Shown here piece after piece: positions 4,583-48,167 of a DNA stretch of 64,000 nt (position 1 is its first letter; every line of letters begins with the position of its first letter). The notes below the pieces were generated by a model. The model was given only the letters and a program-made list of their open reading frames with translations. It was not told where the DNA came from and made no database searches. The translations under genes and the position numbers were made by a program. The DNA is from an uncultured bacterium (GTDB lineage Bacteria > Patescibacteriota > Patescibacteriia > CAIQCM01), in assembly GCA_963708045.1 (NCBI GenBank), contig OY970181.1:643740-707739 (forward strand), read 5' to 3'.

Positions 4583-7500
4583 ATGCTGGTAAATAAAAAG
4601 GCAAATATTATAAAAATTTTCAATCAGGGTCTTTTTCCAAAGACCCTGATTGTGATTTTAGTCATTTTCTTTTCGTTTTTTGGATCGTTAATACGACACC
4701 AGAATCAAAAAATGACCAACTCCGCCAAAACAAGCGACGTGCTTGTTGTTTCTGGTAATAGTAATTTTCGTGTTGATGAAATACCTGAGTTTCGCGTTGA
4801 TCTACCCAAAGGAACAACAGCGAAGACTAGTTTGTCAAAAGTTTTTGAAATATTCGGCGTTCGTACGACCTTGGCCGGGGATGTGGTAAAGAGCGAAGTG
4901 TCAAATTACTATGATCCAACAATAAAGCCGCAGACGGTTGCTGAGTTTGACGGCAATGGCGTTAAATTGACTGTTCCAAAACCGGAAACGCAATTTAGGC
5001 CGGGAAAATATTCCATTAAGATTGAATTTAACGCCGGTGACCAGGTTTTAAAAACGGAACGGGATTTTACTTGGGGCGTGCTGGCGGTGAACACCGACAA
5101 GTCGGTTTACTCGCCTGGCGAGACCGCTAACTTGCAATTGGGCGCGCTTACCGATGTAGGCAGCACTATTTGCCGCGGCAATCTTGAACTTGGCGTGACC
5201 GATCCGCAGGGCAAAACGACCGTTCTTTCGACTAAAGACGGTTCAATCGCCTTCGGCACCGAGTGCCGCGGCAACAACGTGACCGACAAGCCCGATTACG
5301 TCGCCAATTACTTTGTTATGGCGGTCGGTGAATATAAGTTGAAATTTACCAATCTTGATAACGGTTATTCAATTGAAGATCGTTTTGTATCGCAGAAAGC
5401 GGTTCCTTTCATTGTGGAGCGGATCGGCGCGACGCGTATTAACCCGACGCGCGCCGATTATGCGATGTCGTTTCGCATAACGGCCAACGAAGATTTTTCC
5501 GGTGACGTCAGCGAAACCGTTCCCGGGGGGTTTGTAATCAAGGAAACTGGAGATGCTATGGTGCAGGCGGTCGGGGAAACGAATGTGCTGACCTGGCGCA
5601 GTATCGCGCTTAAGGCCGGAGAGGTAAAGATATTGCGGTATGTTTATGACGCGCCCAACATTTCGCCAAAAATATACGAGCTCGGCCCGCTCAGCTTCAC
5701 GGAGAACGGAATTGTCCGATGGCAAGAAGCGCGACGCTGGCAAATAGCCGCCGATGCCACCAAAACCGCCGCCGGGACCGGTAACTGGAATACCGCCGCA
5801 ACCTGGTCGCCGAGCGGCGTGCCGGCTGCGGGCGACGATGTAATCATTATCAGCGGATACACCGTGACCATGAACGTTAACAACCCCGCCTCGCCCGCCA
5901 CCATAACGCTCGGCGGCGCAACGGCGGGAACGTTGTCAATGTCTCTGGCTAACACAAGTCTTACCTTTACGATCACGGGAAACGTGACCATAAACAGCAA
6001 CGGATCTTTCGTCGTCACCAATGCTACGGCCGCAAATACGCACACGGTCAATATCGGCGGAAATTTGGTCGAGAATGGCACCTTCGACATGGGTTCTGCC
6101 ACAGACGACTATGCGACGGTCGTCTTTAACGGCACGTCCGCGCAAACGATAAGCGGCACCGGTGCGACCTGCAGATTTTTCAGCCTTACCGCAAATAATT
6201 CGAGCGCTACAGGCTTAACGCTCGCGAGAAACGTGACAGTACAGCCGACCAGCGTGCTTACCACCACCATAACAGTATCGGCGAATCGCGTTTTTGATAT
6301 CGGCGCCTATACCATTGATCGATCAGCCGCTGGCGCCGGTTCATTCATCATTAACTCCGGCTCAACTCTTAAAATTGGCGGCACTGGCGATTTCCCAACC
6401 AATTACACAACCAACACCATAAACGCCGCAAGTACCGTCAATTATAACGGCACTACGCAAAGCGTGAACGCTTTCACGTATGGAAATTTACAGATCAACG
6501 GTTCGGGCACCAAGACATCGGCCGGAGTGATAACTGTTTCTGTTAATCTAACCATAGGAGATGGTGCAACTCTTTCGCATGGGGCTTATAACTTGACGGT
6601 GACTGGCACTTCAACGATCGGCGGGGGAACGAGCGGTGGCCTCACCCTGTCTTCGGCCACCGGCACCAAGCAATTCACCGGCGCGGTGACGGTCGCGAAC
6701 GGCGCGACCTGGAACAACTCCGGCAACTCGGCCGTTAATTTTCGCGGCGGACTCACCAATAACGGGACTTTCACTGCCGGCTCGGGCGTATATACCTTCG
6801 ATACCAATTCGCAGAACCTTTACGGAACCGTATCCATTCCCAACGTTACGGTCACCGGTGTTACTCTGACCAATAATAATTCGCTTACCGTCGGCACAGC
6901 GCTTTCCGGCACCGGCGGCGTGACCCAAGCGTCTTCCGCAAGCTTGACCATCACCGGCACGTCGGGCATAACGACGCTTACGGCCACGGCGAGCAGTAAC
7001 ACCGTCACCTATAACGGCAGCAGTCAGACTGTCAAAGCCACGACCTACTACACGCTTACTATGAACGGTTCGGGCACGGCCACACTCGGTGGTACTGTCT
7101 CGGCCACAACCTTGAATGTGTCGGCGTCCGTACTTAACACCAATAATCAGAGCTTGTCGGTGAGCGGCACGACGACCGTGGACGGGGGGCTCGGCATCAC
7201 CACCGGAACCTCGGGCACGATCAGTTTTGGCAACCTCACAATCAGTGCAACAGGCGCATTCAGCAACTCCGTCAATGACGATTTCAGTATCAGTGGAAAT
7301 TTTTCCAACAGCAACACCTTTTCTGCGGGGACGGGAAATACGGTCACATTGAATGGTGTTGGCGGCTCAACGCAGACCATTACTGGCAGCAGCACTTTTC
7401 CTAACCTAACGGCCACGGCTTCTTCCGCGCGCACAATCCGCTTTGCCGCTTCATCCACGACCACGGTTACCGGAACTTGGACAGTCGCCGGAAGCTCGGG

Positions 7501-9571
7501 ACAGCGCATAACTTTGACCTCCACAACTACGAGCCAGTGGAGCGTAAACCCGACCACCCCCGCGGTTTCCTATGTTGATTTGAACTACTCCAACAATATC
7601 AGTGGTTCTACCGCTTGCGCCACCTATTCGCAGACGACTAGCGGTAATAACACGAGCTGGATGATCTCTGACAGTGGTTCCTGTGTCAGTGTGCCGAATC
7701 CGCCGGTTTTATATCCTGACGATGGTGGTACTTATCAGGTCACCTTCAATAACACCCGGCAGTTTGACGCAACGCCTATCGTTCGCGCTTCGGCTACACA
7801 TACTGCAAGTTTCAACCGATTCCAAATTGAATTCAACGCGGCTTCGGATTTCGGCGGCACCGCCTACACCGAGACACTTTCTGGAACTTATTTGTCAGGC
7901 ACTCCTTATAACCTCCAGACTACCGGCACCTTGGGTCTGCCCACGACTGATGGGGTGACTTATTATGTCCGGGTGCGAGCCTCGGCTGACGGCGGCTCGA
8001 GCTACAGCGGCTGGTCTGCGTTGGTTTGGTCTTATACTTACAAAAGCTCGGGAAGCACCGATTGGTTTCAGACGACCGATGCACAGTTTAATACAGGGAC
8101 TTTCAGTTCAACCGAAACAACAGGTTCCGGTTCGGTCGGACTGTTAAGCGGTTCAATCGCGGAATTAAATATAATTCAGACGACAAAAGTTGAACCAACG
8201 GCAACGGGATCGTCGATTCCTTTTGTTTTAGGTTCTCAGCCGACTGTTGGCAATCTGCTGGTGGCGTTTGTTGGAAATTCTGATTATTCAGAAGACAGAA
8301 CCGCATCAGCTCCGGACGGAACCTGGACAAAAATTCAAGATCAAACAAGTTCCAATGTGCAACTTACGATTTGGTGGAAAATAGTTGGGGGAGGAGATGG
8401 GACGACATATACCTTTCCGGTCAGTGGGACGGTTGAATGGTATTCCGGAGTATTGTATGAAATTGAAGGCGCGGATTCAACTACACCTATAGATCAAAGT
8501 GCTGTAAATACCGGCTCACAAACCACACCAACCGTTACGCCGACTGTCATCGGTACCCTAGCCTTGTCATCATTAGAAACAGACGACGGCTCAACCGGCG
8601 GCATAACCCTTACTAGTATTAGCAGCGGCTGGACCGAAGATCAGACGGCACGGCCTTCATATCACACGACTTATGCGTCTTCGCGAGACGCTTTAACAAC
8701 CGATACGACAACAGCCATATCCAATGTCTATACTCTTTCCGGCTCACCAACTACTCCTGTTGCTGCAACTGTTTTAATCAAGCCTACTATTAATTCTTTT
8801 AGCTCCGGATCTGTTACGTCTCCGGCGATCAATTTTGATTCTGTTCCAAATTCAACAAGTTGGGGCACGGCATCATGGTCGGAAACGGAAACGAACGGTT
8901 CAATATCCATGCAAGTATATTATGATGCGGGCAGTGGTTGTAATACGATTATTCCAGACGGAGCACTTACTGGAAATAGTGCTGGTTTTGCGACTGGTCC
9001 TATTAATATTTCCGGCTTGAACACCACAACCTACGCCGATCTCTGCCTTAAGGCGACACTTTCTAATTCCACAGGGTCGCCGTATTTAAATGATTGGACT
9101 TTAAGTTGGTCCACCGGTCCATCAACGGCAATCGAGGTCAGGGCACAGAATTACACCACCCCGGTATCAAGCATTACTTTTCCACAAAGTCCTCCGGGCT
9201 CCGCGGTCACACAACCATATAACGACGTGAATGGGAGTGGTAGCTCACAAGCGTTCGGCAGTGCCGGGGTCGCCAAACCGGTCGTAACGCTCTATAATGG
9301 TGGCGCCGTCCCCCTGACCATTTGGTATAATATAACAACCTTCACGAATGGGATCGTTGCGAGTGAGGGGTATCTTGTAAATAACAAAGGAGCTGCTTGC
9401 GCGAATGCGGGTGCGATTACGGCGTCTGCGGTCTTTGACACGGATACAAGCACCGGCGTGACGATACTTGCCGGTGCGGGCAATGAAAAAGATCTTTATT
9501 TAAAAACAACGCTCAGTGGACTGGCAGCCGTAAGCGGCACCTCAACGTTGACTATTTTGGGTGAAACATGA
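4583..9571 (+). CDS. giant (1662 aa) membrane-anchored surface protein with beta-helix-like G/T/N-rich repeats
   Basis: Single uninterrupted 4989-nt ORF; N-terminal TM anchor; repeats such as 'GTGNWNTAATWSPSGVPAAGDDVIIISGYTVTMN' and 'TLGG..G.L'; C-terminal domain homologous to the 200-aa protein at 3281..3865. Confidence 0.8.
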   Translation: MLVNKKANIIKIFNQGLFPKTLIVILVIFFSFFGSLIRHQNQKMTNSAKTSDVLVVSGNSNFRVDEIPEFRVDLPKGTTAKTSLSKVFEIFGVRTTLAGDVVKSEVSNYYDPTIKPQTVAEFDGNGVKLTVPKPETQFRPGKYSIKIEFNAGDQVLKTERDFTWGVLAVNTDKSVYSPGETANLQLGALTDVGSTICRGNLELGVTDPQGKTTVLSTKDGSIAFGTECRGNNVTDKPDYVANYFVMAVGEYKLKFTNLDNGYSIEDRFVSQKAVPFIVERIGATRINPTRADYAMSFRITANEDFSGDVSETVPGGFVIKETGDAMVQAVGETNVLTWRSIALKAGEVKILRYVYDAPNISPKIYELGPLSFTENGIVRWQEARRWQIAADATKTAAGTGNWNTAATWSPSGVPAAGDDVIIISGYTVTMNVNNPASPATITLGGATAGTLSMSLANTSLTFTITGNVTINSNGSFVVTNATAANTHTVNIGGNLVENGTFDMGSATDDYATVVFNGTSAQTISGTGATCRFFSLTANNSSATGLTLARNVTVQPTSVLTTTITVSANRVFDIGAYTIDRSAAGAGSFIINSGSTLKIGGTGDFPTNYTTNTINAASTVNYNGTTQSVNAFTYGNLQINGSGTKTSAGVITVSVNLTIGDGATLSHGAYNLTVTGTSTIGGGTSGGLTLSSATGTKQFTGAVTVANGATWNNSGNSAVNFRGGLTNNGTFTAGSGVYTFDTNSQNLYGTVSIPNVTVTGVTLTNNNSLTVGTALSGTGGVTQASSASLTITGTSGITTLTATASSNTVTYNGSSQTVKATTYYTLTMNGSGTATLGGTVSATTLNVSASVLNTNNQSLSVSGTTTVDGGLGITTGTSGTISFGNLTISATGAFSNSVNDDFSISGNFSNSNTFSAGTGNTVTLNGVGGSTQTITGSSTFPNLTATASSARTIRFAASSTTTVTGTWTVAGSSGQRITLTSTTTSQWSVNPTTPAVSYVDLNYSNNISGSTACATYSQTTSGNNTSWMISDSGSCVSVPNPPVLYPDDGGTYQVTFNNTRQFDATPIVRASATHTASFNRFQIEFNAASDFGGTAYTETLSGTYLSGTPYNLQTTGTLGLPTTDGVTYYVRVRASADGGSSYSGWSALVWSYTYKSSGSTDWFQTTDAQFNTGTFSSTETTGSGSVGLLSGSIAELNIIQTTKVEPTATGSSIPFVLGSQPTVGNLLVAFVGNSDYSEDRTASAPDGTWTKIQDQTSSNVQLTIWWKIVGGGDGTTYTFPVSGTVEWYSGVLYEIEGADSTTPIDQSAVNTGSQTTPTVTPTVIGTLALSSLETDDGSTGGITLTSISSGWTEDQTARPSYHTTYASSRDALTTDTTTAISNVYTLSGSPTTPVAATVLIKPTINSFSSGSVTSPAINFDSVPNSTSWGTASWSETETNGSISMQVYYDAGSGCNTIIPDGALTGNSAGFATGPINISGLNTTTYADLCLKATLSNSTGSPYLNDWTLSWSTGPSTAIEVRAQNYTTPVSSITFPQSPPGSAVTQPYNDVNGSGSSQAFGSAGVAKPVVTLYNGGAVPLTIWYNITTFTNGIVASEGYLVNNKGAACANAGAITASAVFDTDTSTGVTILAGAGNEKDLYLKTTLSGLAAVSGTSTLTILGET

Positions 9572-20934: not shown

Positions 20935-21032
20935 AGTTATTTATTATAGCACGCTTGACTTTGCTTGCGTTTGTGTTAATTTAAACGGCTTGCCAAAGTA
21001 AGCGGCAAGATGATTTTTGACAACCAAAAGAG

Positions 21033-22412
21033 GTGATTAAAGTGAAAAAAACAAGTGCACAACCAGACAGCGGAAAATATTTTGTTTTGCCGGAGCATCT
21101 CGTTCTCGCAAAAATGGACGAACTTAGGCGAGCACGGATTACGGTGCGCAAGGTTGAAGCAATTGCTTGCGGACTTACCTTTGACGCATATCTCGTAAGA
21201 AAAAACGGAACGCGCGGCGGGTTAGAGAGGGTTCTTGCGGTTTTGAGTCTAAGCCAGAAGCAAATTCGCAGGGAAAAATGTTTTGTGAACGATTGCAAAT
21301 ATGAACTTGTTACCGTGAGCCAAGGCCGCGTTCGCATTCATGATTCTGAAAATGTTTACAAGCGAAACAAGACGTTTCAGGCGACGAGCGCCTATCGTCG
21401 CGAGCTTGAAAATTTTTCACGCCTTTTGGGTGGTGTAGAATTACATTTTCATTGCGCCAAGCTTTTTGAGCGTAATTCCTTTCCAAACGTGCCGGGTTGC
21501 TACCGAATTTTTACGAACAGTTCGCCCGCCGGTGAAGCTAGCTTCACATTTGGAACAACCATCTTTGGTATGCCTTTGGACAAGGATGGGTTTCCGGTCA
21601 AGGTAACCAAACCGACACCGGGTCGCGGGCTCAGTATGGAGGATCAGGAGGAGCAACCGTGCGTTCAGGTTCTTGGTAATACGATCTACTTTCTGGTTCC
21701 GACGGTTGGCAACTATCGCGGCGAGATCAGCCGGATTATCTTTAAGAAACTCTTTATCGCGGGGTGGGACGGAATTCGTCTCCTTGCCAAGGAAAAGAAA
21801 ACCAAGCCGCTTAGCAAGCGCGCTTGCGCCGGAATTGCGAAGCGCTGGGTTGACGGCTATCCGAACGGAGTTGAGGAGGAAATGGCGCTCTTAGACGATA
21901 AGATTGCGCGCGTAACGAAGGAACTCGCCGGATATTTGCGGAACAAACAAGAATTTGCGTCTATTCTTGCGCTTCTTAATACCCCCGGGTATGCCAGACG
22001 TGCTAAAAAACGCTTGGTTCGGGAATTTGATAAGCTGATGGCCAATCCCGATTTTGAGCGCGTATCCGTGGTTGACGAGGGACTGCATCTCGCGACCAAG
22101 CGGATCATTCCTGAACACAACGGACGCGGTTTCGATCTTGGGCGCTTTGTTATTAGGATCGGACGAAACGGGCGCGTTTCAGTTTGGAGTGAGGAACCGA
22201 CGCACCCGCGCCGCATTCCTCATCCGCACATTGATGCCGACAGTGGTCCGTGTTTTGGCAATGCGACCGAGGCAATTATAAAAGCCGCGGCCGAAGAGCG
22301 GTACGCTGACGCCGCGTCTATGACGTTGCGTTGGTTAAGGGATGGATATTCGCCGGAACTTGCGGCGGTAAAAATAGAAGAATGGCCGGTTGTTAAAGAA
22401 GGGATGGGTTGA
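21033..22412 (+). CDS. protein with C-terminal UBC/E2-like domain (candidate E2 of a Ubl-conjugation operon)
   Basis: C-terminal 'FVIRIGRNGRVSVWSEEPTHPRRIPHPHIDADSGPCFGN' mirrors the E2 core 'F.I.I.FP..YP..PP.V.F...I.HPNI...G.ICL' (HPN-like HPH, then Cys 9 residues on); GTG start with AAGAGG RBS; stop sits just before the E1-gene start. Confidence 0.5.
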   Translation: MIKVKKTSAQPDSGKYFVLPEHLVLAKMDELRRARITVRKVEAIACGLTFDAYLVRKNGTRGGLERVLAVLSLSQKQIRREKCFVNDCKYELVTVSQGRVRIHDSENVYKRNKTFQATSAYRRELENFSRLLGGVELHFHCAKLFERNSFPNVPGCYRIFTNSSPAGEASFTFGTTIFGMPLDKDGFPVKVTKPTPGRGLSMEDQEEQPCVQVLGNTIYFLVPTVGNYRGEISRIIFKKLFIAGWDGIRLLAKEKKTKPLSKRACAGIAKRWVDGYPNGVEEEMALLDDKIARVTKELAGYLRNKQEFASILALLNTPGYARRAKKRLVREFDKLMANPDFERVSVVDEGLHLATKRIIPEHNGRGFDLGRFVIRIGRNGRVSVWSEEPTHPRRIPHPHIDADSGPCFGNATEAIIKAAAEERYADAASMTLRWLRDGYSPELAAVKIEEWPVVKEGMG

Positions 22413-22413
22413 A

Positions 22414-23118
22414 ATGAAAGATCTTAATCACTCACAACAGCGGGCGCTGTTTAGTCCGAGCGCCGCGCGAGTCGTGACCGTAATCGGTGTTGGTGCGGTG
22501 GGAAGTTGTGTCGTTAAAATGCTCGCCAAGCTCGGCGTTCGCAATATTACGGTCATTGACCCCGACTACGTTGAATCACATAATCTTCCAATGTCGGCGT
22601 ACGGGCTTCGTGACCTGGCTAAATATAAAGTGTCGGCTTTGGCCGCCGAAGTGGAGCAGCAAACCGGCGTGCTTTTGATAGAGGCAAGACTGGCATACAC
22701 GGGCGGTAAGTTTAGGGGGACGGTGGTTGCTTGTGTTGATAGTATGGAAGCGCGGAGTCTGATTTGGAAATATGTAAAAAGAGATCCGCTTGTTGATGTT
22801 TTTGTGGACACGCGGACGGCCGAGGAGTTAATCTCGGTCTTTGGCGTAAATCCAACCAACGAAGAACATATCGCCTACTACGAACATCATCTTTGTCCGA
22901 CTACGGAAACGCTTAATACTACCTGTGGTCGGCACGGAATTATCTATGTAAGCGCCATTGCTGCGGCACTCGTTTGCAAACGGTTGACACAACACTGGAC
23001 AGACGGTACATATAACTTACACACAATGGGAACGGTTGACGACTTTTCGTGCGTCGGCCAAAACACAGACAGAGGAGAGAGCGATGAGGAAGCCGAAGAA
23101 AATCAGCGTAACGATTAA
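22414..23118 (+). CDS. minimal E1-like (ThiF/MoeB-family) adenylyltransferase
   Basis: Rossmann 'VTVIGVGAVGSCVVKMLAKLGVRNITVIDPDYVESHNLP' (GxGxxG plus D.D.VE.SNL); 'TTCGRHGIIYVSAIAAALVCKRL' matches the ThiF C-terminal half; ATG 22414 immediately follows the upstream stop. Confidence 0.7.
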   Translation: MKDLNHSQQRALFSPSAARVVTVIGVGAVGSCVVKMLAKLGVRNITVIDPDYVESHNLPMSAYGLRDLAKYKVSALAAEVEQQTGVLLIEARLAYTGGKFRGTVVACVDSMEARSLIWKYVKRDPLVDVFVDTRTAEELISVFGVNPTNEEHIAYYEHHLCPTTETLNTTCGRHGIIYVSAIAAALVCKRLTQHWTDGTYNLHTMGTVDDFSCVGQNTDRGESDEEAEENQRND

Positions 23119-23320
23119 AGTGGTTCCGGTCTCGGGAAGAACGAGGGAAATCAGCGTGGAACTTGGCGGGAAAAATCCGACCATCGCGACGGCGCTAACG
23201 CAAGCCGGCGTTGCCTCGGAAAGAACGGACATCACTGTTTCCAGAAAACCAGCTAAGCTTGCTGATGTGGTTCACGCAGGCGCAACGATTCGCGTTGCCG
23301 AACGTCCGCACAGTTCGTAG
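23084..23320 (+). CDS. ubiquitin-like beta-grasp protein (ThiS/MoaD-like), no C-terminal Gly-Gly
   Basis: 'ISVTIKVVPVSGRTREISVELGGKNPTIATALTQAGV...DITVSRKPAKLADVVHAGATIRV' follows the ThiS/MoaD pattern; GAGAGAG RBS before ATG 23084; overlaps the E1 3' end. Confidence 0.45.
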   Translation: MRKPKKISVTIKVVPVSGRTREISVELGGKNPTIATALTQAGVASERTDITVSRKPAKLADVVHAGATIRVAERPHSS

Positions 23321-23697
23321 TCGGAAACGACACTTGGCGCGTCGCGTGCCAAGACAAGGGGTTCTCTACAGAGAGCCCCTTTTAAAATTTTTAAAATTAA
23401 ATCGTCCGCCAAACCGATGGGGCTTGGCGGACGTGTTTCTTCGGGTTTGCTTAGTGATCCAAAAGATAGGCGAGGGTGAGGATTGGGTGAGATGGATCAA
23501 TCAATCCTCTGGTTTGCGCCAGAGAATTGAGACAATTGGCGCAGGTTGATGAGTTACGAACGGCGTCTCGCAAGGAATGTATGGCAGGACACTGGCACGG
23601 ACGTTTTCCAATTGCCTTTTCCGTGGGTTGATACAAACTGAATCGCCGGCCGCCTTTTCCAAACAAACAAAGGGTTGGTTTATAACGTGGCATCGTA

Positions 23698-24486
23698 TTA
23701 CTCCTTTTTGAAGTCTGGGGGCAGTGGAAAACCGCTCGCGAGTTCACGGTCACGATACATTTTTGGAAGCATCATCTCGCTTGTCCACGATCCGATGATT
23801 TCGGCTATGCTATCGCTTCCTTGATATTTCCCGCCGTCTTTGGCGTAGGTTGTTCGGTCGGGATCAACTTGGAAAAAGATAATTTGCGCGACGCGCATTC
23901 CCACAACCAAGATGACCGAAGTCTCGCGCATATGGTTGGTCATTTCCATTGTCCAACGCGCGATGTAGCCAAGGTCGCCCCAGCCAGCACATTTACAAAC
24001 GGTAATGCCGATTCTGCCCATACTGGAACGGGCGCGCATTTCTGTGCTAACGCAATTTCGTCCGCCGATGAATTCTATCGTGTGAGCAAGAATCGTTTCG
24101 CCAGGATCAAGGATAATGAGTTGGTCGTTGCGGCGTATGCCCTTCAGGCTAACACTGTGTTCGTCCATATATTGACCGGCGACGATGGGTAGACAAGCCT
24201 TTCCCCAATATCGGCGAATGTGGATTTCATCAAAGGGGTTTAAGATCGCCGCGTCGCCGCTTGTGCGCCGCGTCTCGCGAAAGAAATTGTGTCCCAGGCG
24301 CACATCATAGCTCATTGTTCCAAGACTCCTTTCATCGTAGGGGCTGATAATGATGTTGCCGGCTTCAAGTTGGTATTTAATCGCTAGCCGTGAAAGGTGC
24401 GAACGCCCAGGTTTGGGCAGTTGTTCAAAATCTTTGATCTCCTCATCTGTCGCAAAAACTGTTCTTGTACTTGTTTCGTTTTTCAT
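23698..24486 (-). CDS. dcd: dCTP deaminase/dUTPase-family protein with N- and C-terminal extensions
   Basis: 'YDVRLGHNF', 'LDPGETILAHTIE', 'EMRARSSMGRIGITVCKCAGWGDLGYIARWTMEMTN', 'AQIIFFQV' align to Dcd core motifs; about 30 aa extra N-terminally and about 50 aa C-terminally. Confidence 0.65.
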   Translation of the reverse strand: MKNETSTRTVFATDEEIKDFEQLPKPGRSHLSRLAIKYQLEAGNIIISPYDERSLGTMSYDVRLGHNFFRETRRTSGDAAILNPFDEIHIRRYWGKACLPIVAGQYMDEHSVSLKGIRRNDQLIILDPGETILAHTIEFIGGRNCVSTEMRARSSMGRIGITVCKCAGWGDLGYIARWTMEMTNHMRETSVILVVGMRVAQIIFFQVDPDRTTYAKDGGKYQGSDSIAEIIGSWTSEMMLPKMYRDRELASGFPLPPDFKKE

Positions 24487-38387: not shown

Positions 38388-38930
38388 ATGCTAAGACTTT
38401 TTGCGAAAACCTTGCGCACGGGAATAATCACCGAATCTCCCTCAAAGATTCGTGATTTTAATTTAGAAAATTTTGAAATAATCGGCGGCAATATTAAGAA
38501 ACTCGTGGACGAACTTTACGGCGGCCGCGCTTTGCGGATTCGCCACGTGGATGCCGGTTCAACCAATGCGGAAGAACTAGAACTCACTGCACTCGGGAAT
38601 CCGTATTACGACCTTGAACGTTTTGGTTTGTCGTTTACCGCTTCGCCAAGGCATGCCGATATTTTGACCGTTTCGGGTCCCGTAACGCGCAATATGGAAC
38701 ACGCGCTAAAAGTCGCTTATGAAATGACGCCCGAACCGAAGATAGTAGTTGCGGTGGGGGATGGGGCGATAACGGGCGGTATCTGGAATGGATCTTATGC
38801 AATCGTGGGACCGGTTCACGCAGTTATTCCGGTTGACGCAAAAATCCCCGGCGATCCGCCGTCGCCCCTCGCGATAATGAAAGGCTTGCTTTCGGCTTTG
38901 CAAACCGTCAAAGATAAAAAAGATGTTTAA
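38388..38930 (+). CDS. NuoB / hydrogenase small-subunit homologue with no cysteines
   Basis: 'YDLERFG', 'ASPRHADILTVSG', 'MTPEPKIVVAVGDGAITGG', 'IPVDAKIPGDPP' align to NuoB; every cluster-ligand Cys is replaced (CC to GS, C to G, C to D). Confidence 0.8.
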   Translation: MLRLFAKTLRTGIITESPSKIRDFNLENFEIIGGNIKKLVDELYGGRALRIRHVDAGSTNAEELELTALGNPYYDLERFGLSFTASPRHADILTVSGPVTRNMEHALKVAYEMTPEPKIVVAVGDGAITGGIWNGSYAIVGPVHAVIPVDAKIPGDPPSPLAIMKGLLSALQTVKDKKDV

Positions 38931-40932
38931 TCAAAACACGATTTCCTATTTGTTTTTTGCGGCAACGGCCTTGTCACTCGCGGCTGGAATTTTTGGTTTG
39001 TTTGGAAAAAATTCAAAAGCCTTTAATACCGTGGTTGGTGTTTTAAATATGGCGGGCGCGCTCGCGCTGGCTGTGTCCGCCGGCAGTTTTTTATTTTTGC
39101 AGGATCGCGGTTTGTTTGCGGTAGGGGACGCTCGCCTGATTGATCTTTCACACCTCGTGCCGTTTATTGGTTCGCGCGCTCTCTCTTTGGATATGCTCTC
39201 GGCCTATTTTCTTTTGCTTGTCGGCCTTGGTGTTTTTCTTGTTTCTTGGTTTGGAATATTTTATTTGCCGCGCTACAAAGAACAGTATCGTTTCCCTTGG
39301 CTTCACATTGCGACGGCGCTGTTTATTTTTGGAATGGAAATTACCGTTGTCGCCGGAACGCCGTTGGTTTTTCTTTTTGCTTGGGAAATAATGTCGTTTG
39401 CCGCGTATTTTTTGGTGATTGCCGACCGCAAAGCCGAATCGGTTAAAGCTGGTTTTTCTTATATCATTATGACCCAGCTTGGCGCCGCTTGTTTGCTTGC
39501 TGGTTTTGCGATTGTTTCGGGTGGTAATATGAACGCGCTGCTTTCTGGTTTGCAATTAGCGCCGGGCGCGGCGGCGGTTGCCGGCTTGGTTTTGCTGATC
39601 ATTGGTTTTGCCGCCAAGGCCGGTATTTTCCCGTTTCACGAATGGCTTCCACTCGCGCATCCGCAAGCGCCGTCGTCAGCTTCGGCACTTATGAGCGGCG
39701 TGATGCTTAAGGTGGCGCTTTACGGACTTTTGCGAACACTCCAAACGATCGCCCATTTTTCTCTACCTCTCTCTGTGGTTCTCATCATTATCGGCTTTGC
39801 GCTTTTTACTGCGTTTTACGGCGCACTGATGGCGGCGGTGGAAACCGACCTTAAACGAACTTTGGCTTGGAGTTCGGTTGAAAATATGGGGTTAATGTTT
39901 GCGATGGCTGGCACGGTTACTTTTTTGGTGCAACTTGGCGCGATGGATGCCGCGGGCGCCGTTTGGATCGCGCTTTTTGTTTTTGCCTTTTGCCATATGC
40001 TTTTTAAGTCGGGTTTGTTTATGGCCGCGGGCGCGCTTATTTCGGAAACACATACGCGTGACCTTGATCTAATGGGTGGACTGGCGAAAAAGTGGCCGGT
40101 TTTCTCGGGTTGGTTTTTATTGCTCGCGCTTTCGGCCGCCGCCTTGCCGCCGGCGGGAACGTTTTATGCGGAATGGATTTTCTTAACGACGGCGGGCGCG
40201 GTTGCGAGCGCTGGCGCGGTTGTCGGATTTATTTTTGTAATCATAATTTCTATTTTTGCTTTGGCCGCTGGTTTAGCTGCGTTTGCAATGATTAAAGTTT
40301 TTGCCGCCGCGTTTCTTGCAAAGCCGCGGAGTGAACATTCGGAACACGCCAAAAGAATGCCAAAAGCGCTTTATGCGCCAGCGGCCGTCGCCGCCGCTTT
40401 GTGCGTTGGCCTTGGTTTGGCACTTCCATATTTTTTGCGCGGCTTATGGCCAAGCGCGGAACGCGTGGTATTTTCTAACGCTTCGCTTATCGCTAGTGGC
40501 GCAAAACTTTCGCCCTTGTTTGTTGCCGCGGCCTTTGTCTTTGTCGCACTTGGCGTTTGGCTGATTCGTTTAGCTTTTAACCGACGCAAGATTCGCATTA
40601 CGGATACCTGGGACTGCGGCGCGCCGCTAACAGCTCGTATGGAATACACGGCAACGGCTTTTTCCGCGCCGCCGCGTTTCTTTTTCCGCGCCTTTACTTT
40701 GCCTTGGAAAAAAATGTCCGTCACGCCAGTTACATTGGGAAACAAATGGATCGCGCAAAAAAAATTGGAGCACGGCACAAAAATGCTCGCCGAGCGCTTT
40801 CTTTATCAACCGGTCGCAATGACGCTTGACCGTCTTTCGGGCGGCGTAAAACTGATGCAAAATGGTGTGGTTCAGTTTTATCTGGCGCTTATCTTTGTTG
40901 CTTTGGTCGTAACGCTTATTGTTGCCCTATGA
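38923..40932 (+). CDS. NuoL/MrpA/HyfB-like antiporter-type membrane subunit
   Basis: 'FPFHEWLPLAHPQAPSSASALMSGVMLKVALYGLLR' hallmark motif; 669 aa and about 16 TM helices; ATG overlaps upstream stop. Confidence 0.8.
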   Translation: MFNQNTISYLFFAATALSLAAGIFGLFGKNSKAFNTVVGVLNMAGALALAVSAGSFLFLQDRGLFAVGDARLIDLSHLVPFIGSRALSLDMLSAYFLLLVGLGVFLVSWFGIFYLPRYKEQYRFPWLHIATALFIFGMEITVVAGTPLVFLFAWEIMSFAAYFLVIADRKAESVKAGFSYIIMTQLGAACLLAGFAIVSGGNMNALLSGLQLAPGAAAVAGLVLLIIGFAAKAGIFPFHEWLPLAHPQAPSSASALMSGVMLKVALYGLLRTLQTIAHFSLPLSVVLIIIGFALFTAFYGALMAAVETDLKRTLAWSSVENMGLMFAMAGTVTFLVQLGAMDAAGAVWIALFVFAFCHMLFKSGLFMAAGALISETHTRDLDLMGGLAKKWPVFSGWFLLLALSAAALPPAGTFYAEWIFLTTAGAVASAGAVVGFIFVIIISIFALAAGLAAFAMIKVFAAAFLAKPRSEHSEHAKRMPKALYAPAAVAAALCVGLGLALPYFLRGLWPSAERVVFSNASLIASGAKLSPLFVAAAFVFVALGVWLIRLAFNRRKIRITDTWDCGAPLTARMEYTATAFSAPPRFFFRAFTLPWKKMSVTPVTLGNKWIAQKKLEHGTKMLAERFLYQPVAMTLDRLSGGVKLMQNGVVQFYLALIFVALVVTLIVAL

Positions 40933-41852
40933 ACACGGTAAATTTAATTATCAGCACAGTTATTATTATTCTTCTCGCGCCGCTTTTTACCGGCTTGATT
41001 CGGAAATTTAAAGCGTTTTTTGGTAATCGCCGCGGCGCGCCCTTGCTTCAGCCATATCGTTCGCTGGCCACGCTTACAAAAAAAGAAATGACGATATCTG
41101 AACACGCAAGCTGGGTGTTTCACGGCGTACCGTTTGTTGTTTTGGGTTGTGCAATTTTTGTGGCCGTGATTGTTCCGACGTTTTTTGCGAGCGGTGTCAC
41201 AATTGGCAATTTATTTTTACTCTCCGCGGTTTTGATGATCGGCGCTTGTGCTTTAGTTTTGGGTGGAATGGACACAGCCTCGGCTTTTGGCGGAATGGGT
41301 GCTAGCCGCGAAATGACCATTGCCGCGCTGACCGAGCCAGTGCTTGTTCTTGCGCTGGTTGCGCTTGGTGCGACGACTGGTTCGTGGACTGCGGGTGGAG
41401 TGCTACAGGAAATGGCTTTGGCGCCGTGGTGGCTGGTGCATCCGTTTATGGTGCTCGTCTTTGGCGCTTTGGCGATGATTGTTTTGGCCGAAGGCGCGCG
41501 CTATCCGGTTGATAACCCGACCACCCACCTTGAACTCACAATGGTTCACGAAGCAATGGTGCTTGAATATTCTGGTCCGTATTTGGCGATGCTTGAATAT
41601 GCGGCGGCTTTAAAATATGCCGTGCTCGCCGTTTTCTTCGTTAACTTAGTCGTGCCTTATAGTGTTTGGGGCGCGGGCGCGACGCTTACTGCTGGCATTA
41701 TCGGTTTTGCTGTTAAGTTTATTTTGGCCGCGTTCCTTACAGCGTTTCTTGAATCAATGGTTGCCAAAATGCGCTTCTACCGCTTGCAAGAATATTTTAC
41801 GGCTGCTTACTTGCTCGTATTTTTTGGTTTTTTACTTTCCTTGATGTTCTAA
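40929..41852 (+). CDS. NuoH/HycD-like membrane subunit
   Basis: 'GNRRGAPLLQPYRSLATLTKKE' loop resembling NuoH 'R.GP...QP..D..KL..KE'; 8 TM helices; ATGA overlap. Confidence 0.7.
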   Translation: MNTVNLIISTVIIILLAPLFTGLIRKFKAFFGNRRGAPLLQPYRSLATLTKKEMTISEHASWVFHGVPFVVLGCAIFVAVIVPTFFASGVTIGNLFLLSAVLMIGACALVLGGMDTASAFGGMGASREMTIAALTEPVLVLALVALGATTGSWTAGGVLQEMALAPWWLVHPFMVLVFGALAMIVLAEGARYPVDNPTTHLELTMVHEAMVLEYSGPYLAMLEYAAALKYAVLAVFFVNLVVPYSVWGAGATLTAGIIGFAVKFILAAFLTAFLESMVAKMRFYRLQEYFTAAYLLVFFGFLLSLMF

Positions 41853-41856
41853 AGCT

Positions 41857-42513
41857 ATGACTGCTGACACTTATCGTTTATTGGTTGATATCCTCGCAGG
41901 TGTGATGCTTGTTTCTGGAGTTTTTATGCTTGGTCGCGTTCGCGTCCGCTCGCTTTTGCGTTTCTTTGCCGTGCAATCGTTCGCGCTCGCGCTTGTCGCC
42001 GCGGCAAGTGCGATCTTTGAAGGGCGTTGGCACCTAATGGCGACAGCGATTCTTGTTTTTGCTATAAAAACAATTTTTTTGCCGCTGTTTATGGTCTCGG
42101 TTATGGCCAAAGGGCGCATTTACGAACGGCTGGTTTTTGCAATGCGTCCGGCACTGTCAATGTTTGTCGGCGCGATAATGGCAGTGCTTGGTTTTTATCT
42201 GACGGCTTCGCTTATTCCCGAACTTGGCGATAATTTTTTCGTGGTTGCAGTTTCGGTTTCCATTGCCCTTGTTGGTCTCCTAATGCTTATGACGCGCAAA
42301 GGACTCTACGGCCAAATCGTCGGCTTCCTAATTTTAGAGAACGGGATTTTTACTTTGGGGATGGCGCTTACCGGAGGGATGCCGCTCATTGTTGAGGTTG
42401 GAATATTTTTTGACGTAACCGTTGGCGCGATTATTATGGCCTTGCTTTCATATCGCGTTCACAGCGAAAGCCGCCGCGCTGACACTGAGTATTTGGAAAC
42501 TCTTATTGACTAG
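41857..42513 (+). CDS. HyfE/NuoK-family small membrane subunit
   Basis: 218 aa with 6-7 TM helices, no Cys-rich motif; position and size match HyfE. Confidence 0.5.
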   Translation: MTADTYRLLVDILAGVMLVSGVFMLGRVRVRSLLRFFAVQSFALALVAAASAIFEGRWHLMATAILVFAIKTIFLPLFMVSVMAKGRIYERLVFAMRPALSMFVGAIMAVLGFYLTASLIPELGDNFFVVAVSVSIALVGLLMLMTRKGLYGQIVGFLILENGIFTLGMALTGGMPLIVEVGIFFDVTVGAIIMALLSYRVHSESRRADTEYLETLID

Positions 42514-42516
42514 CTT

Positions 42517-43977
42517 ATGTATATAATTTTTGCCGTCCTAGCCGCCGCCATCACCGCCCTTGTTTGTCTTTTTGCGCGGAATTATCGCGCGCTCACGATC
42601 TCGGCCGTTAGCGGATCGTTTGTTGTTTTTGCCTTCGCGCTCATTTCCATCGGCGCTTGGTTTGGTTTTATTCCGGGGAGTATGGCTTGGCTTAAGTTTG
42701 ACGGGTTTGGCGCGGTGATGTTGGCGCTCGTTGCCGTCGTGCAACTTTTTGCGACCATTTCAAGCGTTCCGTATTTGCGCGCGGAAATAGAAGAGGGGAC
42801 GGTTACTTTTTCGCAAGCGCGTTGGTATAACGCGCTAATTCCAGCCTTTGTCATTTCAATGATCCTCGCGGTTTCGGTTGATTCGCTTGGTCTTATGTGG
42901 ATTGCGATGGAAGGCACGACGCTTGCGACGACAATGCTTGTAGCTTTTTATACAAAAGAAGGTTCGCTTGAAGCGGCTTGGAAATATATTCTCGTTTGCT
43001 CGGCCGGCATTGCGATTGGTTTGATTGGCGTTCTCCTTATCTTCTATGCCGCTTTTTTGGGAAGCGGCAGCGAAACCGTTTCCATAACTTGGACAAGCCT
43101 TTTGGCGTCGGCGCACTTGTTGCCGCCGGCAGTTGTTAAATTGGCGTTCGTTTTTGCTTTCATCGGTTTTGGCACCAAAGTCGGAATGGTGCCAATGCAT
43201 ACTTGGCTTCCCGATGCCCATGGCAGGACGCCGTCGCCGGTTTCGGGAATGCTTTCGGCTGTGCTTTTGCCAATCGCGCTTTTGATTATTTATCGTGCCA
43301 AGGTGGTTGTTGATGCCGTTCTTGGCTCGGCTGACTGGAGCAATGGTTTCTTTATTTTCTTTGGCGCGCTTTCGGTTGCCGTGTCGGTTTGTTTTATGGT
43401 GAGGCAAAAAAACTACAAGCGCCTGCTCGCTTATTCCTCCATAGAACATATGGGCTTTGCGGTTTTTGCCTTAGGCTTTGGAAAGCTCGGTGTAATTTTT
43501 GCGATGATTCACATTATCGGCCATGCCCTAATTAAATCGGCACTCTTCTTTGGCACGGGTAATATTTTGATCGCCTATAAAAGCACCAAGTTTGACAAGG
43601 TGGCGATGGTTGCCAAATATTTGCCAAGACTCTCTGTACTTTTTGTCATTGCCTTGCTAATGCTTTTGGCCGTACCGCCGTCGCCGCTTTTCTTTTCCGA
43701 GCTGGGAATTTTTGCGCTGGGTTTTGGCACGCATCCGCTCGCTTCAGCCATCGTGCTCGCCGCTTCGGTTATCGCCGCTGGTTCGTTTTTTATGAATTTT
43801 ATTCCGATGTTTTTTCTTGGTCACGACGACGCCCGGCCGACGCATAAAGAAGTTGAACATTGGAACGCGACGCATACGGCGATTGCGGCCGGTTTGGTTT
43901 TAGCCGTGGCTTTTGGTGTGTCGCTTCTCGCTGGTTCTGGCCGCGAAATGCTTGCTCAAATTATTTCAATCATCTAG
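42517..43977 (+). CDS. NuoN/NuoM/HyfF-like antiporter-type membrane subunit
   Basis: 'MVPMHTWLPDAHGRTPSPVSGMLSAVLLPIALL' hallmark motif; 486 aa. Confidence 0.8.
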   Translation: MYIIFAVLAAAITALVCLFARNYRALTISAVSGSFVVFAFALISIGAWFGFIPGSMAWLKFDGFGAVMLALVAVVQLFATISSVPYLRAEIEEGTVTFSQARWYNALIPAFVISMILAVSVDSLGLMWIAMEGTTLATTMLVAFYTKEGSLEAAWKYILVCSAGIAIGLIGVLLIFYAAFLGSGSETVSITWTSLLASAHLLPPAVVKLAFVFAFIGFGTKVGMVPMHTWLPDAHGRTPSPVSGMLSAVLLPIALLIIYRAKVVVDAVLGSADWSNGFFIFFGALSVAVSVCFMVRQKNYKRLLAYSSIEHMGFAVFALGFGKLGVIFAMIHIIGHALIKSALFFGTGNILIAYKSTKFDKVAMVAKYLPRLSVLFVIALLMLLAVPPSPLFFSELGIFALGFGTHPLASAIVLAASVIAAGSFFMNFIPMFFLGHDDARPTHKEVEHWNATHTAIAAGLVLAVAFGVSLLAGSGREMLAQIISII

Positions 43978-46181: not shown

Positions 46182-48167
46182 ATGAAATCAGAAAAGTCAT
46201 CAAAATTAATTGAACAAATAAATCGTAGAGTGGGGGTAGTCAACCTCTTAGCTCTCTTTAAGGCCGTGATCGTGGGAATATTATCGGCCGAGGCTTTTTA
46301 TGTTGCGAAAGTCATCGCCAATCTGCTAGAAGAAACTATAAAAAGGGCAAATTTTGAAAATTGGGCAATTGCAATCAGTGTTTTATGTCTCGTAATCGTT
46401 GGTATTTATGTGTTTGTGAGGGGACTATTTTTTGACATTTGGAAGATACTGAAAAGTTTACGGTTCGATATATACGTTTCTTTTTTATTGGGAATTTCAA
46501 TCAGCATATCATTCAATGGTATTGGAACAAATTTATATAAAACAATTCTTTCGTACTTAAATATAAGTCAGGTTTTGGTTCTCATCCTTACTCCTATTAT
46601 CGTTGGTTTGCTAATATTAATCCGCGCTGTTTTGGAAGAATTACTCGGCGGGAAAAAAGAAGATCCGTTTTTTATTCCTGACAAGGAAGAAAGATATAAA
46701 AACAACGATCTTCTTGATTATGCCAACCAAGCGACTCTTTTTGCTGAAAGAATATATAATAACGGGTCTGAGAATAGTTTAGTTTTTGGAATCGATGCGC
46801 CGTGGGGTGTTGGTAAATCAACCTTTATAAATTTTTGCATAGAATCATTTGAGGAGAAGAAATACAAAGACCGAGTTGTAGTTTATAGATTTAACCCATT
46901 GAGATACGAGGATCGGACAAATCTACTCGAAAAATTTATTGATGGATTAATAACGACTATTCAAAAAAATACATTTGCACCAGAAATTAGACCATTGATT
47001 TCGCATTACTCACGGATTATTAAGTCTAAGGTTTCGGCACCTATTTCATTTTTTGGTATCGGAATAAAATTATCTCCTGGAACCTACACGGTTGATGACG
47101 CTTTTAATGATTTAGAGTCAGCTTTAAAAAACCTTAAGAAAAAAATTGTTATAATTGTTGACGATTTGGATCGTCTTGAGCTTTCGGCAATAAAAGATGT
47201 TCTTTTTACTCTAAAAACGAGTTTTAATTTACCGAATGTGTCCTATGTTATTTGTTATGACACAGAAAATATTGCAACTTTAAACTATGGTAGCCCGGAC
47301 GATGATAAATTAATGGAGTTTTTTGAAAAATTTGTAAATGTCAAGGTAAGTCTCTTTATTGATAATAAGATACTCGAAAAATATGTTACAGATAATTTTA
47401 ATATTGCCCTACAAAATAATCTTGGAACAAATCCCATAACGCGTGAAAAAATACGAGAAGCCATTTGTGAGTTGGTAAATATATACAAATCGCAAGAAGC
47501 TCATTTGTACCAGTCATTTATTGGTGACATTAGAAAATTGAAAAGACTCATTAATACGATAATGCTTTTAAAAATCGAAGAGACTGATTTTGGAAATAGC
47601 GATTTTGACAAAAGTGATTTGGTTCATCTTTTATTGATATACATAAATTACCCGAATATTTTTCGAAAAATATATAATACTGAAACAGGCGGCAAGAGAA
47701 GATTCTTTTCGGTCGTCGCCCCACATGAGGATGGTTTTATTGGAATACCCGGCCAGCGTTCAGAGGATGGGCAATATGAAAATTCCACATACTATAAGGA
47801 ATACTTAAAGAGCCTAAATGATAATCAACGCTTTCTTTTAAATAAAATCTTTGATGTTACTAAACGATTGCCTGATACTCGTCGGATTGATTCGGTATCG
47901 CCAACGATAAAAAAATCTTATGCATGTTTTAATGGCGGTTGGGGTGCGGGGAAAAACCTTGAAGAATACCTTCATCTCATTGTTAAATTAGTGAAACCAC
48001 AAAAAAGAGGTCAGTATAAATTTTATTTGAATGCACGGGATAAGGTGAAAGGCGGAACAAGCCCCGAGGCCATTTTTAAATCAGAGAAAGATTTTAGTTT
48101 TTCTGAAAGCGAGAACAGTCATCTTCAATTCTGGAACATAATAATGGATACCGCCAACGATCTCTGA
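46182..48167 (+). CDS. KAP-family P-loop NTPase with N-terminal 4-TM domain
   Basis: KAP Walker A 'GIDAPWGVGKSTF'; Walker B 'IVIIVDDLDRLE'; four N-terminal TM helices; AT-rich. Confidence 0.75.
   Translation: MKSEKSSKLIEQINRRVGVVNLLALFKAVIVGILSAEAFYVAKVIANLLEETIKRANFENWAIAISVLCLVIVGIYVFVRGLFFDIWKILKSLRFDIYVSFLLGISISISFNGIGTNLYKTILSYLNISQVLVLILTPIIVGLLILIRAVLEELLGGKKEDPFFIPDKEERYKNNDLLDYANQATLFAERIYNNGSENSLVFGIDAPWGVGKSTFINFCIESFEEKKYKDRVVVYRFNPLRYEDRTNLLEKFIDGLITTIQKNTFAPEIRPLISHYSRIIKSKVSAPISFFGIGIKLSPGTYTVDDAFNDLESALKNLKKKIVIIVDDLDRLELSAIKDVLFTLKTSFNLPNVSYVICYDTENIATLNYGSPDDDKLMEFFEKFVNVKVSLFIDNKILEKYVTDNFNIALQNNLGTNPITREKIREAICELVNIYKSQEAHLYQSFIGDIRKLKRLINTIMLLKIEETDFGNSDFDKSDLVHLLLIYINYPNIFRKIYNTETGGKRRFFSVVAPHEDGFIGIPGQRSEDGQYENSTYYKEYLKSLNDNQRFLLNKIFDVTKRLPDTRRIDSVSPTIKKSYACFNGGWGAGKNLEEYLHLIVKLVKPQKRGQYKFYLNARDKVKGGTSPEAIFKSEKDFSFSESENSHLQFWNIIMDTANDL

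Follow-up and report, generated by a model that had tools for sequence, protein, structure and literature searches.

A conserved gene trio encoding E2-like, E1-like and serine-terminated ubiquitin-like proteins in Patescibacteria-type bacteria: a candidate minimal conjugation cascade

A 64,000-nucleotide stretch of the genome of an uncultured bacterium of the Patescibacteriota (contig OY970181.1 of assembly GCA_963708045.1, positions 643,740 to 707,739 of the forward strand; hereafter the window) carries three packed genes on its forward strand at 21042-23320, followed by a terminator hairpin. They encode a protein with an E2-like C-terminal domain (gene X), an E1-like protein (E1) and a small ubiquitin-like protein (Ubl). 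Bacterial operons combining E1, E2 and Ubl components are already known from the survey of Iyer et al. 2006 (PMC1779556) and from the Bil (PMC10557695) and Bub (PMC11601596) systems; it is only recently that Bil, Bub and CBASS Cap2 were demonstrated to carry out genuine ubiquitin-like conjugation, each type with unexpected chemistry. The locus raises the question of whether these three genes constitute such a system and, if so, whether it is one of the described types. The comparisons presented here show that the cassette is a real, strongly conserved variant of the bacterial E1/E2/Ubl operons, which fails the defining features of Bil, Bub, type II CBASS and ThiS/MoaD systems, and they make it somewhat probable that the three proteins form a conjugation cascade of their own.

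Three proteins with E2-like, E1-like and ubiquitin-like features

A preliminary description of this DNA had read the C-terminus of the 459-amino-acid (aa) X protein as a UBC core with an HPH tripeptide and a nearby catalytic Cys, the 234-aa protein as a minimal ThiF/MoeB-type E1 with a Cys in the crossover region, and the 78-aa protein as a beta-grasp fold whose end departs from the usual Gly-Gly. All three open reading frames (ORFs) were found where it had placed them, every motif it quoted was recovered by translation (IPHPHIDADSGPCFGNA in X, GVGAVG and NTTCGRHG in the E1, and ERPHSS directly before the stop codon at the Ubl end), and each of these identifications is borne out by the evidence that follows.

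The product of gene X finds no match among the models of Pfam, NCBIfam, PADLOC and PHROGs, and ten representatives of its family, spread over the 150 listed, yielded no significant domain when scanned against Pfam. A word-indexed search with X retrieved only 26 relatives, and the E2 domain alone as word-index query only two fragments; an exhaustive HMMER search with the alignment of the 26 relatives recovered 2,345 cluster representatives at E <=1e-3, 184 of them at <=1e-30. In the AlphaFold2 (AF2) model of X, computed from 24 sequences (mean pLDDT 83.3), residues 320-459 (residue numbers in X are counted from GTG 21033) present a helix, four to five strands, the HPH loop, a Cys and three helices, in that order, and the C-terminal domain as modelled is of UBC topology. 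The top two Foldseek matches of the model are to UbcH7 (E 6e-3 and 1.3e-2). Further, hhalign comparison of 150 X C-terminal domains with five canonical human E2s returned a probability of 89.7% (E 1.8e-6), as against at most 0.9% for shuffled-column controls (n=30). The alignment spans the region from the alpha1 helix to the active site and places Cys407 on the catalytic Cys and HPH on HPN, with P-H-P-H-I-x-x-x-G-x-C paired to Y-H-P-N-(I/V)-x-x-x-G-x-(I/V)-C. The sequence identity of the X E2 domain to E2s is low, at 10-19%.

Inspection of 151 members taken from 50%-identity clusters shows that H397, H399, C407 and G409 are conserved in 100% and P398 and Y439 in 99% of them, and the active-site motif is kept in 158 of 159 X sequences, the sole exception being one that looks frameshifted. 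The family retains the His and Pro of the HPN motif and replaces its Asn with an invariant His. Like the canonical E2s UBE2D2 and UBE2S, the domain combines alpha1, a beta-meander, H-P-x, seven residues, the Cys and C-terminal helices. In this it differs from the bacterial E2 families of the 2006 survey, which replace or lack the canonical His that X keeps (PMC1779556), and from non-canonical E2s without the C-terminal helix pair (PMC11601596), the helices being kept in X. It could be argued that X is no transferase at all: it might be a non-catalytic UBC-like scaffold, as UEV and RWD domains are, or else a hydrolase of the Cys/His kind whose part is only to bind or trim the Ubl. This we regard as extremely unlikely: inactive UBC-like domains have lost the Cys, whereas here Cys407 and both His residues are 100% conserved with E2 spacing, and the Ubl, whose ORF stops at the conserved tail, needs no trimming. 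The N-terminal domain of X has weak PII-like Foldseek matches (E ~0.1).

The E1 is a single adenylation domain, 216-234 aa long across the family. The Pfam ThiF model scores 57.4 bits on the window protein (cutoff 28.1), and a profile of 16 orthologues matches UBA5 (2.8e-10), ThiF (1.5e-9), MccB (2e-9), PaaA (4e-8) and BubCD (5.5e-7) among the sequences of the Protein Data Bank (PDB), in addition to NAE/UBA3, Cap2 and Uba4, the matches being confined to the Rossmann half. In the hhalign comparison of this profile with E. coli ThiF (96.9% probability over 167 columns), the invariant residues G25/G27/G30, D49, N57, K72, D109 and R114 align with the nucleotide and Mg ligands of ThiF, and the invariant Cys171 aligns with Cys184 of its crossover loop. 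Models of more specific families stay far under their cutoffs on this protein: NCBIfam cap2_3 reaches 47.5 against a cutoff of 320, TIGR03736 of the PRTRC systems 30.8 bits against 144.75, with no PRTRC partners found, and the score also lies far below the NCBIfam cutoff for 6A-MBL. By these sequence comparisons, the window E1 belongs to the superfamily and is close to none of its members.

The window Ubl matches nothing in the curated Pfam, NCBIfam, PADLOC and PHROGs libraries. Among 17 orthologues chosen by their position after the E1, however, 12 are matched by Pfam SAMP2 (best 1.4e-5), and the alignment of all 17 matches SAMP2 and PF1061 in the PDB at E ~1e-4. The AF2 model of the Ubl, for which the alignment was built from database homologues, shows a beta-beta-alpha-beta-beta arrangement with a five-residue tail (pLDDT 82.4), and its top Foldseek matches are all Ubls at probability 1.0, namely Mth1743, Caldiarchaeum ubiquitin, NEDD8, MoaD, SUMO, ubiquitin and TtuB. 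The ORF, whose conservation the preliminary description had left to be checked, stands beside the E1 in all relatives; family members measure 73-100 aa, and an Arg five residues from the end occupies the place of ubiquitin Arg72.

The departure from Gly-Gly at the Ubl end (AERPHSS) proves to be part of a family-wide Gly-Ser signature and not a quirk of a single genome. The ends read in 16 of the 17 positional orthologues (all but L012) comprise 14 with Gly-Ser, one with Ser-Ser and one with Gly-Gly, and the Ubl of the window also ends in Ser-Ser; in a set of 75 database homologues, biased by the word index, 72 end in Gly-Ser (52 of these in ERPQGS), one in GG and one in RP. As the ORF stops exactly at the conserved tail in every one of these 75, the Ubl would be unprocessed and the residue presented to the E1 would be Ser. 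To our knowledge, every characterised E1-activated Ubl ends in Gly. No description of a serine-terminated Ubl or of the X family was found in the open-access literature, nor anything relevant on ubiquitin-like systems in the candidate phyla radiation (CPR)/Patescibacteria. The Ubls of Bil and Bub, too, end in Gly (PMC10557695, PMC11601596).

Such a terminus could point to an MccB/PaaA-like chemistry, by which the E1 would act on the terminal Ser (through cyclisation, nucleotidylation or a beta-lactone). The altered Ubl would itself be the product, and X would serve not as a ligase but in an accessory or carrier capacity. MccB and PaaA indeed rank near the top of the PDB matches of the E1 profile, the Ser is nearly invariant with a side chain that could participate, and neither a deubiquitinase (DUB) nor an acceptor is evident. 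We nonetheless consider this very unlikely, as the substrate is a folded beta-grasp protein with an R-x-x-G-S tail and not a short peptide, the small E1 is without the N-terminal peptide-clamp domain of MccB and PaaA, the one natural Gly-Gly variant implies that the hydroxyl is dispensable at least there, and the invariant E2 active site favours acyl transfer.

At the other end of the protein, most Ubl orthologues open with a Lys/Arg-rich disordered tail (MRKPKK, MARKKSGSGKKGQSK, MSKKNRSSRTKK), the residues of which could serve as acceptor lysines for chains or as nucleic acid binders.

Linkage of the trio and a proposed conjugation cascade

GTDB genomes and JGI metagenomes, queried by protein look-up and by pattern scan, gave 52 loci, which reduce to 37 distinct ones with GC contents of 43-68%. 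Across these 37, the X, E1 and Ubl genes are adjacent and in the same order wherever the contig permits, at X identities of 23-68%, and a search begun from the Ubl retrieves the same trio; distant members keep it as well, for instance L051, whose Ubl ends in SARPQGS. This adjacency is far beyond chance. The labelled source genomes are mainly those of Patescibacteria (Uhrbacteria, Lloydbacteria, Saccharibacteria and Parcubacteria), with a few metagenome-assembled genomes bearing other, unverified labels. One distant locus, L050, appeared as an E1-less exception; this was a gene-calling artefact, tblastn finding the E1 in another frame at 7361-8050. The public gene call in that region (L050 6001-8100) merges X with a long Arg-rich out-of-frame tail and skips the E1, which is either an assembly frameshift or a miscall.

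No fourth component (DUB, E3, effector, regulator or target) recurs in all-versus-all clustering of the ORFs of 18 and then of all 37 loci, and a JAMM-motif regular expression applied to the neighbouring ORFs found no recurring JAMM-motif protein. Together with a Pfam scan of the window, these results uphold the earlier remark that neither a JAB peptidase nor a CD-NTase is linked to the genes, and the thiamine or molybdopterin genes that would have recast the cassette as a biosynthetic one are beside it in none of the 37 loci.

The latter observation bears on whether the Ubl is a sulfur carrier, in which case it would be adenylated by the E1 and converted to a thiocarboxylate, and Cys407 of X would pass the sulfur on, as a persulfide or relay site, to a cofactor or tRNA. 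In favour of this, the nearest counterparts of the Ubl are carriers of the ThiS, MoaD, SAMP2 and TtuB type, one source labels a homologue of it 'sulfur carrier protein', the E1 is matched best in NCBIfam by ThiF models, and the ThiF residue aligned with Cys171 is the one that forms the acyl-disulfide in thiamine synthesis. Yet the NCBIfam ThiF/MoeB equivalog scores are far under their cutoff (best 51 versus 159 bits), Gly-Ser stands in place of the Gly-Gly that known carriers need, the 37 loci contain no neighbouring gene for a rhodanese, a cysteine desulfurase, ThiG/ThiH, MoaE or TtuA/NcsA, and a UBC fold with an E2 signature is not known in sulfur transfer. On balance, a sulfur-carrier role appears quite unlikely.

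A further alternative keeps the conjugation and changes its purpose: by marking a phage protein or switching on an immune effector, X would make the cassette an antiphage defence system, a link that the preliminary description had drawn by way of Bil, Bub and Cap2. All characterised bacterial E1/E2 operons are defensive (PMC10557695, PMC11601596), in PADLOC the E1 is matched best by the Cap2 'E1-E2' models (7e-16), and LexA or a Y-family polymerase within 8 kb recalls the DNA-damage-responsive regulators beside Bub operons. Against this, X and the Ubl match no PADLOC model, and a mobile or viral origin was rejected after no homologue of X was found in phage, plasmid and IMG/VR collections. The context contains neither an island nor a mobile element; the neighbours are housekeeping genes (IF3-L35-L20, MraZ-RsmH-Mur, UvrC, MreBC, ParAB, HisRS), synteny is stable within lineages, and no effector, JAB or regulator recurs. 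The connection to defence was therefore not sustained by the context, and we consider a defensive function possible but unlikely, leaning towards a function native to the chromosomes of Patescibacteria-type bacteria over that of a mobile antiphage module.

As regards individual neighbours, LexA is the next commonest, being found within 8 kb in 7 of the 37 loci, with a Y-family polymerase in 5, and in one lineage X is immediately preceded by an ADP-ribosylglycohydrolase (ARH). As partners these were rejected and kept only as a lead: the LexA link comes from about three independent lineages, which is near chance for ~1,000 gene families, about one of which would be expected to reach that number by chance. 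The LexA and IMS/DinB polymerase neighbours, in some cases joined by an ARH, lie at L023 2545-5816, L014 4590-10471, L007 9769-12783, L020 11220-13122 and L016 2088-2750; in L023, dinB and lexA on the minus strand are followed by the ARH, X, E1 and Ubl genes on the plus strand. Such proximity suggests SOS control, in a manner that about three independent lineages leave statistically unconvincing. In a high-GC lineage (L001 1-2440 and 5567-7440; L003, L029, L034), two paralogous endonuclease/exonuclease/phosphatase-family genes always stand upstream of X, and a 200-aa unknown protein and an AAA_28 protein are encoded downstream.

Returning to conjugation, we consider it somewhat probable, from the sequences, the predicted structures and the comparison of genomes, that the three genes encode a self-contained, minimal, DUB-less Ubl conjugation cascade with a thioester relay from E1 to E2, every chemical step of which we infer by analogy with the protein families concerned. 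If its family is a guide, the small E1, which like ThiF, MoeB and UBA5 is probably a homodimer, would bind the Ubl and, with ATP, adenylate its free C-terminal carboxylate (Gly-Ser in most members, Ser-Ser in the window), no proteolytic maturation being needed. Cys171 of the E1 might then attack the adenylate to give an E1~Ubl thioester, unless the E2 were to attack the adenylate directly. In the following step, the Ubl would be handed to Cys407 within the HPH-x7-C active site of X. Finally, and more speculatively, the ~320-residue N-terminal region of X could stand in for an E3 by picking the acceptor, to which the Ubl would be transferred, most simply on a protein lysine.

Several observations weigh against this cascade. 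On the side of X, HMMER searches with its profile against PDB sequences yielded no E2, only coiled-coil noise, and X has no match at E up to 1 in NCBIfam or in Pfam, its E2 models UQ_con and Prok-E2_A-E included; for this reason the E2 assignment rests on predicted structure and profile-profile alignment, and the E2 and ThiF sequences used in the profile alignments were entered by hand. On the side of the E1, the Arg of the SNLxRQ motif is missing (S-H-N-x-P-M-S is found instead), no Arg aligns with the N-terminal Arg finger (the N-terminus reads L-N-x-S-Q-Q), and the 16 aligned sequences have no conserved Zn-binding CxxC pairs. As a consequence, the adenylation competence of the E1 is an assumption rather than evident. 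Additionally, the terminal Ser of the Ubl is unprecedented and may entail a different chemistry, and no acceptor, E3 or DUB is identifiable. It is the E1 without these Arg residues and the serine terminus, both departures from the norm, that hold our confidence in the cascade at a modest level.

Of the described systems, Bil is like the cassette in that its Ubl, E2 and E1 are encoded by separate genes of a single operon, without an E3; Bil relies on a Cys thioester relay, with its E2 presumed to choose the target (PMC10557695), and such a relay is here only proposed. Bil, however, has a JAB deubiquitinase (BilC) that matures the Ubl to its terminal Gly, a large multidomain E1 (IAD-AAD-CYS) and a diverged 'CEHH' E2, in contrast to the absence of a JAB, the unprocessed Gly-Ser, the single adenylation domain, and the HPH-Cys signature with a 320-aa N-terminal extension seen here. 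With Bub it shares a small homodimer-type E1 akin to UBA5 and ThiF, an E2-fold protein and a beta-grasp Ubl. Bub nevertheless works through oxyesters (Tyr on the E1, Ser-His on the E2) without a catalytic Cys (PMC11601596), whereas both enzymes here have an invariant Cys; it also includes the BubE serine protease, often a JAB, and fused components (PMC11601596), in place of which no fourth gene recurs here, and its E2 is without the C-terminal helix pair, unlike the E2 domain of X with three C-terminal helices. Cap2 likewise combines a ThiF-like adenylation domain with an E2 fold, and its PADLOC models, the best matches of the E1, cover ~70 residues of the Rossmann core; it is, however, an E2-E1 fusion that conjugates the C-terminus of a CD-NTase instead of a Ubl and is accompanied by the CD-NTase, an effector and a JAB (Cap3), whereas the present genes are separate and none of these is present.

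The ThiF/ThiS, MoeB/MoaD and archaeal UbaA/SAMP pairs offer the same combination of a minimal E1 with a small beta-grasp protein of the ThiS/MoaD/SAMP2 kind, but have no E2, employ Gly-Gly carriers and are located beside, or work for, enzymes of sulfur-cofactor synthesis or tRNA thiolation, in contrast to the Gly-Ser terminus and the constant presence of the E2-like protein here. On the eukaryotic side, the UBA5-UFC1-UFM1 cascade is similar in that UBA5, the best solved-structure match of the E1 profile, also has its catalytic Cys in the crossover loop. As against canonical E2s and the eukaryotic cascades they serve, the cassette has HPH in place of HPN, a large N-terminal extension of X, no E3 or protease and a Ser-ended Ubl.

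A bolder proposal is that the trio is an independent, fourth bacterial ubiquitination-like machinery, native to CPR chromosomes, which would activate a C-terminal Ser whose side chain takes part in the chemistry (by a transient beta-lactone or O-acyl intermediate, or a distinct linkage). It would possess the most eukaryote-like E2 active site observed so far in a bacterial operon (H-P-x-x7-C plus the C-terminal helices) and no E3 or deubiquitinase, with the acceptor, not necessarily a protein lysine, chosen by the N-terminal domains of X. We offer this in its entirety as a conjecture that is rather unlikely to hold.

Layout of the locus and other features of the window

Table 1. Coordinates of the features of the cassette (window positions, all on the forward strand).
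Feature	Position	Strand	Remarks
Intergenic region between the divergent MFS gene and X	20935..21041	+	Holds Shine-Dalgarno AAGAGGTGA
Gene X, E2-like, 456 aa (459 aa from GTG 21033)	21042..22412	+	
X N-terminal alpha/beta domain, residues ~16-103	21078..21341	+	Poorly conserved in the family
X conserved middle domain, residues ~111-253	21363..21791	+	
X long helical hairpin, residues 262-337	21816..22043	+	Last helix (320-337) is alpha1 of the E2 domain
X UBC/E2-like domain, residues 320-459	21990..22409	+	
H397-P398-H399, counterpart of E2 HPN	22221..22229	+	100%, 99% and 100% conserved, 151 sequences
Cys407, predicted thioester-forming catalytic Cys	22251..22253	+	Aligns with UBE2D2 Cys85; 100% conserved
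Minimal single-domain E1, ThiF/MoeB type, 234 aa	22414..23118	+	Last 18 aa form the acidic tail
E1 nucleotide-binding loop G25-V-G27-A-V-G30	22486..22503	+	Verified by translation
E1 Cys171, motif C-G-x-H-G	22924..22926	+	Invariant; aligns with ThiF Cys184
Ubl, 78 aa, beta-grasp, Lys-rich N-terminal tail	23084..23320	+	
Ubl C-terminal tail E-R-P-H-S-S, stop codon next	23300..23317	+	Family consensus E-R-P-Q-G-S
Terminator hairpin, then UUUUAAAAUUUUU; 3' end of the operon	23356..23381	+	-18.4 kcal/mol, z -4.2, U-rich run after

The forward-strand ORFs of 21033-23320 comprise 459, 234 (242 from an upstream TTG) and 78 (94) codons. The length of 459 aa given for X in the preliminary description is that of the ORF from GTG 21033; the Shine-Dalgarno sequence AAGAGGTGA (~21026-21034) overlaps this GTG, and the start is most likely GTG 21042, which yields 456 aa, is the one used in public gene call P0001 and would be served by this Shine-Dalgarno sequence. 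The intergenic region showed no convincing promoter of the sigma-70 type. The overlap that had been described for all three genes holds for the E1 and Ubl genes only: the E1 stop at 23118 lies 35 nucleotides past the Ubl ATG at 23084, but the TGA of X ends at 22412 and is separated by a 1-nucleotide spacer from the E1 if the latter starts at ATG 22414. The 35-nucleotide overlap itself is due to an 18-aa acidic tail of the window E1 (NTDRGESDEEAEENQRND, window 23065-23118, forward strand), which is absent in all 15 aligned orthologues, is encoded where the Ubl start overlaps in another frame and, judging by the sequence, looks like the result of a lost stop codon. The relative L004, 68% identical, keeps the terminator hairpin although its stem differs in sequence, and the packing of the genes together with the hairpin 3' of the Ubl marks the unit as a three-gene operon.

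The operon is bordered by a divergent MFS transporter gene upstream and a convergent dCTP-deaminase gene downstream, the earlier naming of both of which is confirmed by Pfam (5e-41 and 1e-31, respectively). The window and L004 have in common the order PRPP-synthase-like, DUF4870, MFS, X, E1, Ubl, dCTP deaminase, GT2 and NUDIX. It is true that the GC content is raised here, as had been remarked (0.49-0.52 versus 0.41-0.46 nearby), but the window as a whole spans 0.33-0.55, which renders the argument weak, and since the flanks are syntenic in L004, the GC content is no evidence of recent acquisition.

The dCTP deaminase was considered as a part of the system and rejected, being common only to the closest relative, L004. 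The gene (window 23698-24486, reverse strand) does have the terminal extensions ascribed to it, with ~30 extra residues at each end, and barely passes the NCBIfam dCTP_deam model (95.6 versus a cutoff of 92.8 bits). Six nucleotides past its stop begins an unannotated 80-aa Cys-rich ORF (MPRYKPTLCLFGKGG...CQC...CANC..., window 23451-23693, reverse strand), with a strong AAGGAG ribosome-binding site and a 13-bp terminator hairpin after it (23403-23433, -25.3 kcal/mol); it has no Pfam match and a 41%-identical homologue in the same place in L004, and could be a small zinc-binding partner of the deaminase.

Elsewhere in the window, a KAP-family P-loop NTPase (Pfam 1.5e-44) is encoded at 46182-48167 (forward strand) in a stretch of 33% GC at 46-50 kb, far under the mean of the window, which may be a horizontally acquired island. 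A 1,662-aa ORF at 4583-9571 (forward strand), in the GC-richest part of the window (54%), is matched by no Pfam model at E <=1e-4. At 38923-43977 (forward strand) lie genes for membrane subunits of an NADH:quinone oxidoreductase or Mrp antiporter (Proton_antipo_M twice, NADHdh); they account for the strongly negative AT skew at 39-44 kb and are notable for a genome of ~1.19 Mb.

Implications for ultra-small bacteria and the E2 fold

Among the bacterial conjugation operons, this cassette is the barest version so far, consisting of three genes without a protease, an E3 or an effector, and it turns up in a large number of uncultured, ultra-small bacteria whose reduced genomes hold few known systems of regulation or defence. 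Despite its 2,345 representatives, the X family is invisible to annotation pipelines, as no Pfam, NCBIfam or PADLOC model exists for it. Two of its features stand out: a canonical-looking E2 active site is kept here that was lost in other bacterial E2s, and the Ubl departs from the terminal Gly that, as far as is known, all other modifiers activated by an E1 have in common. If active, the trio would supply a simple three-protein system for the handling of a non-glycine terminus by an E1, would add a new data point on the bacterial ancestry of the eukaryotic E2 fold, and would mark the first time that a system of post-translational tagging is ascribed to CPR bacteria.

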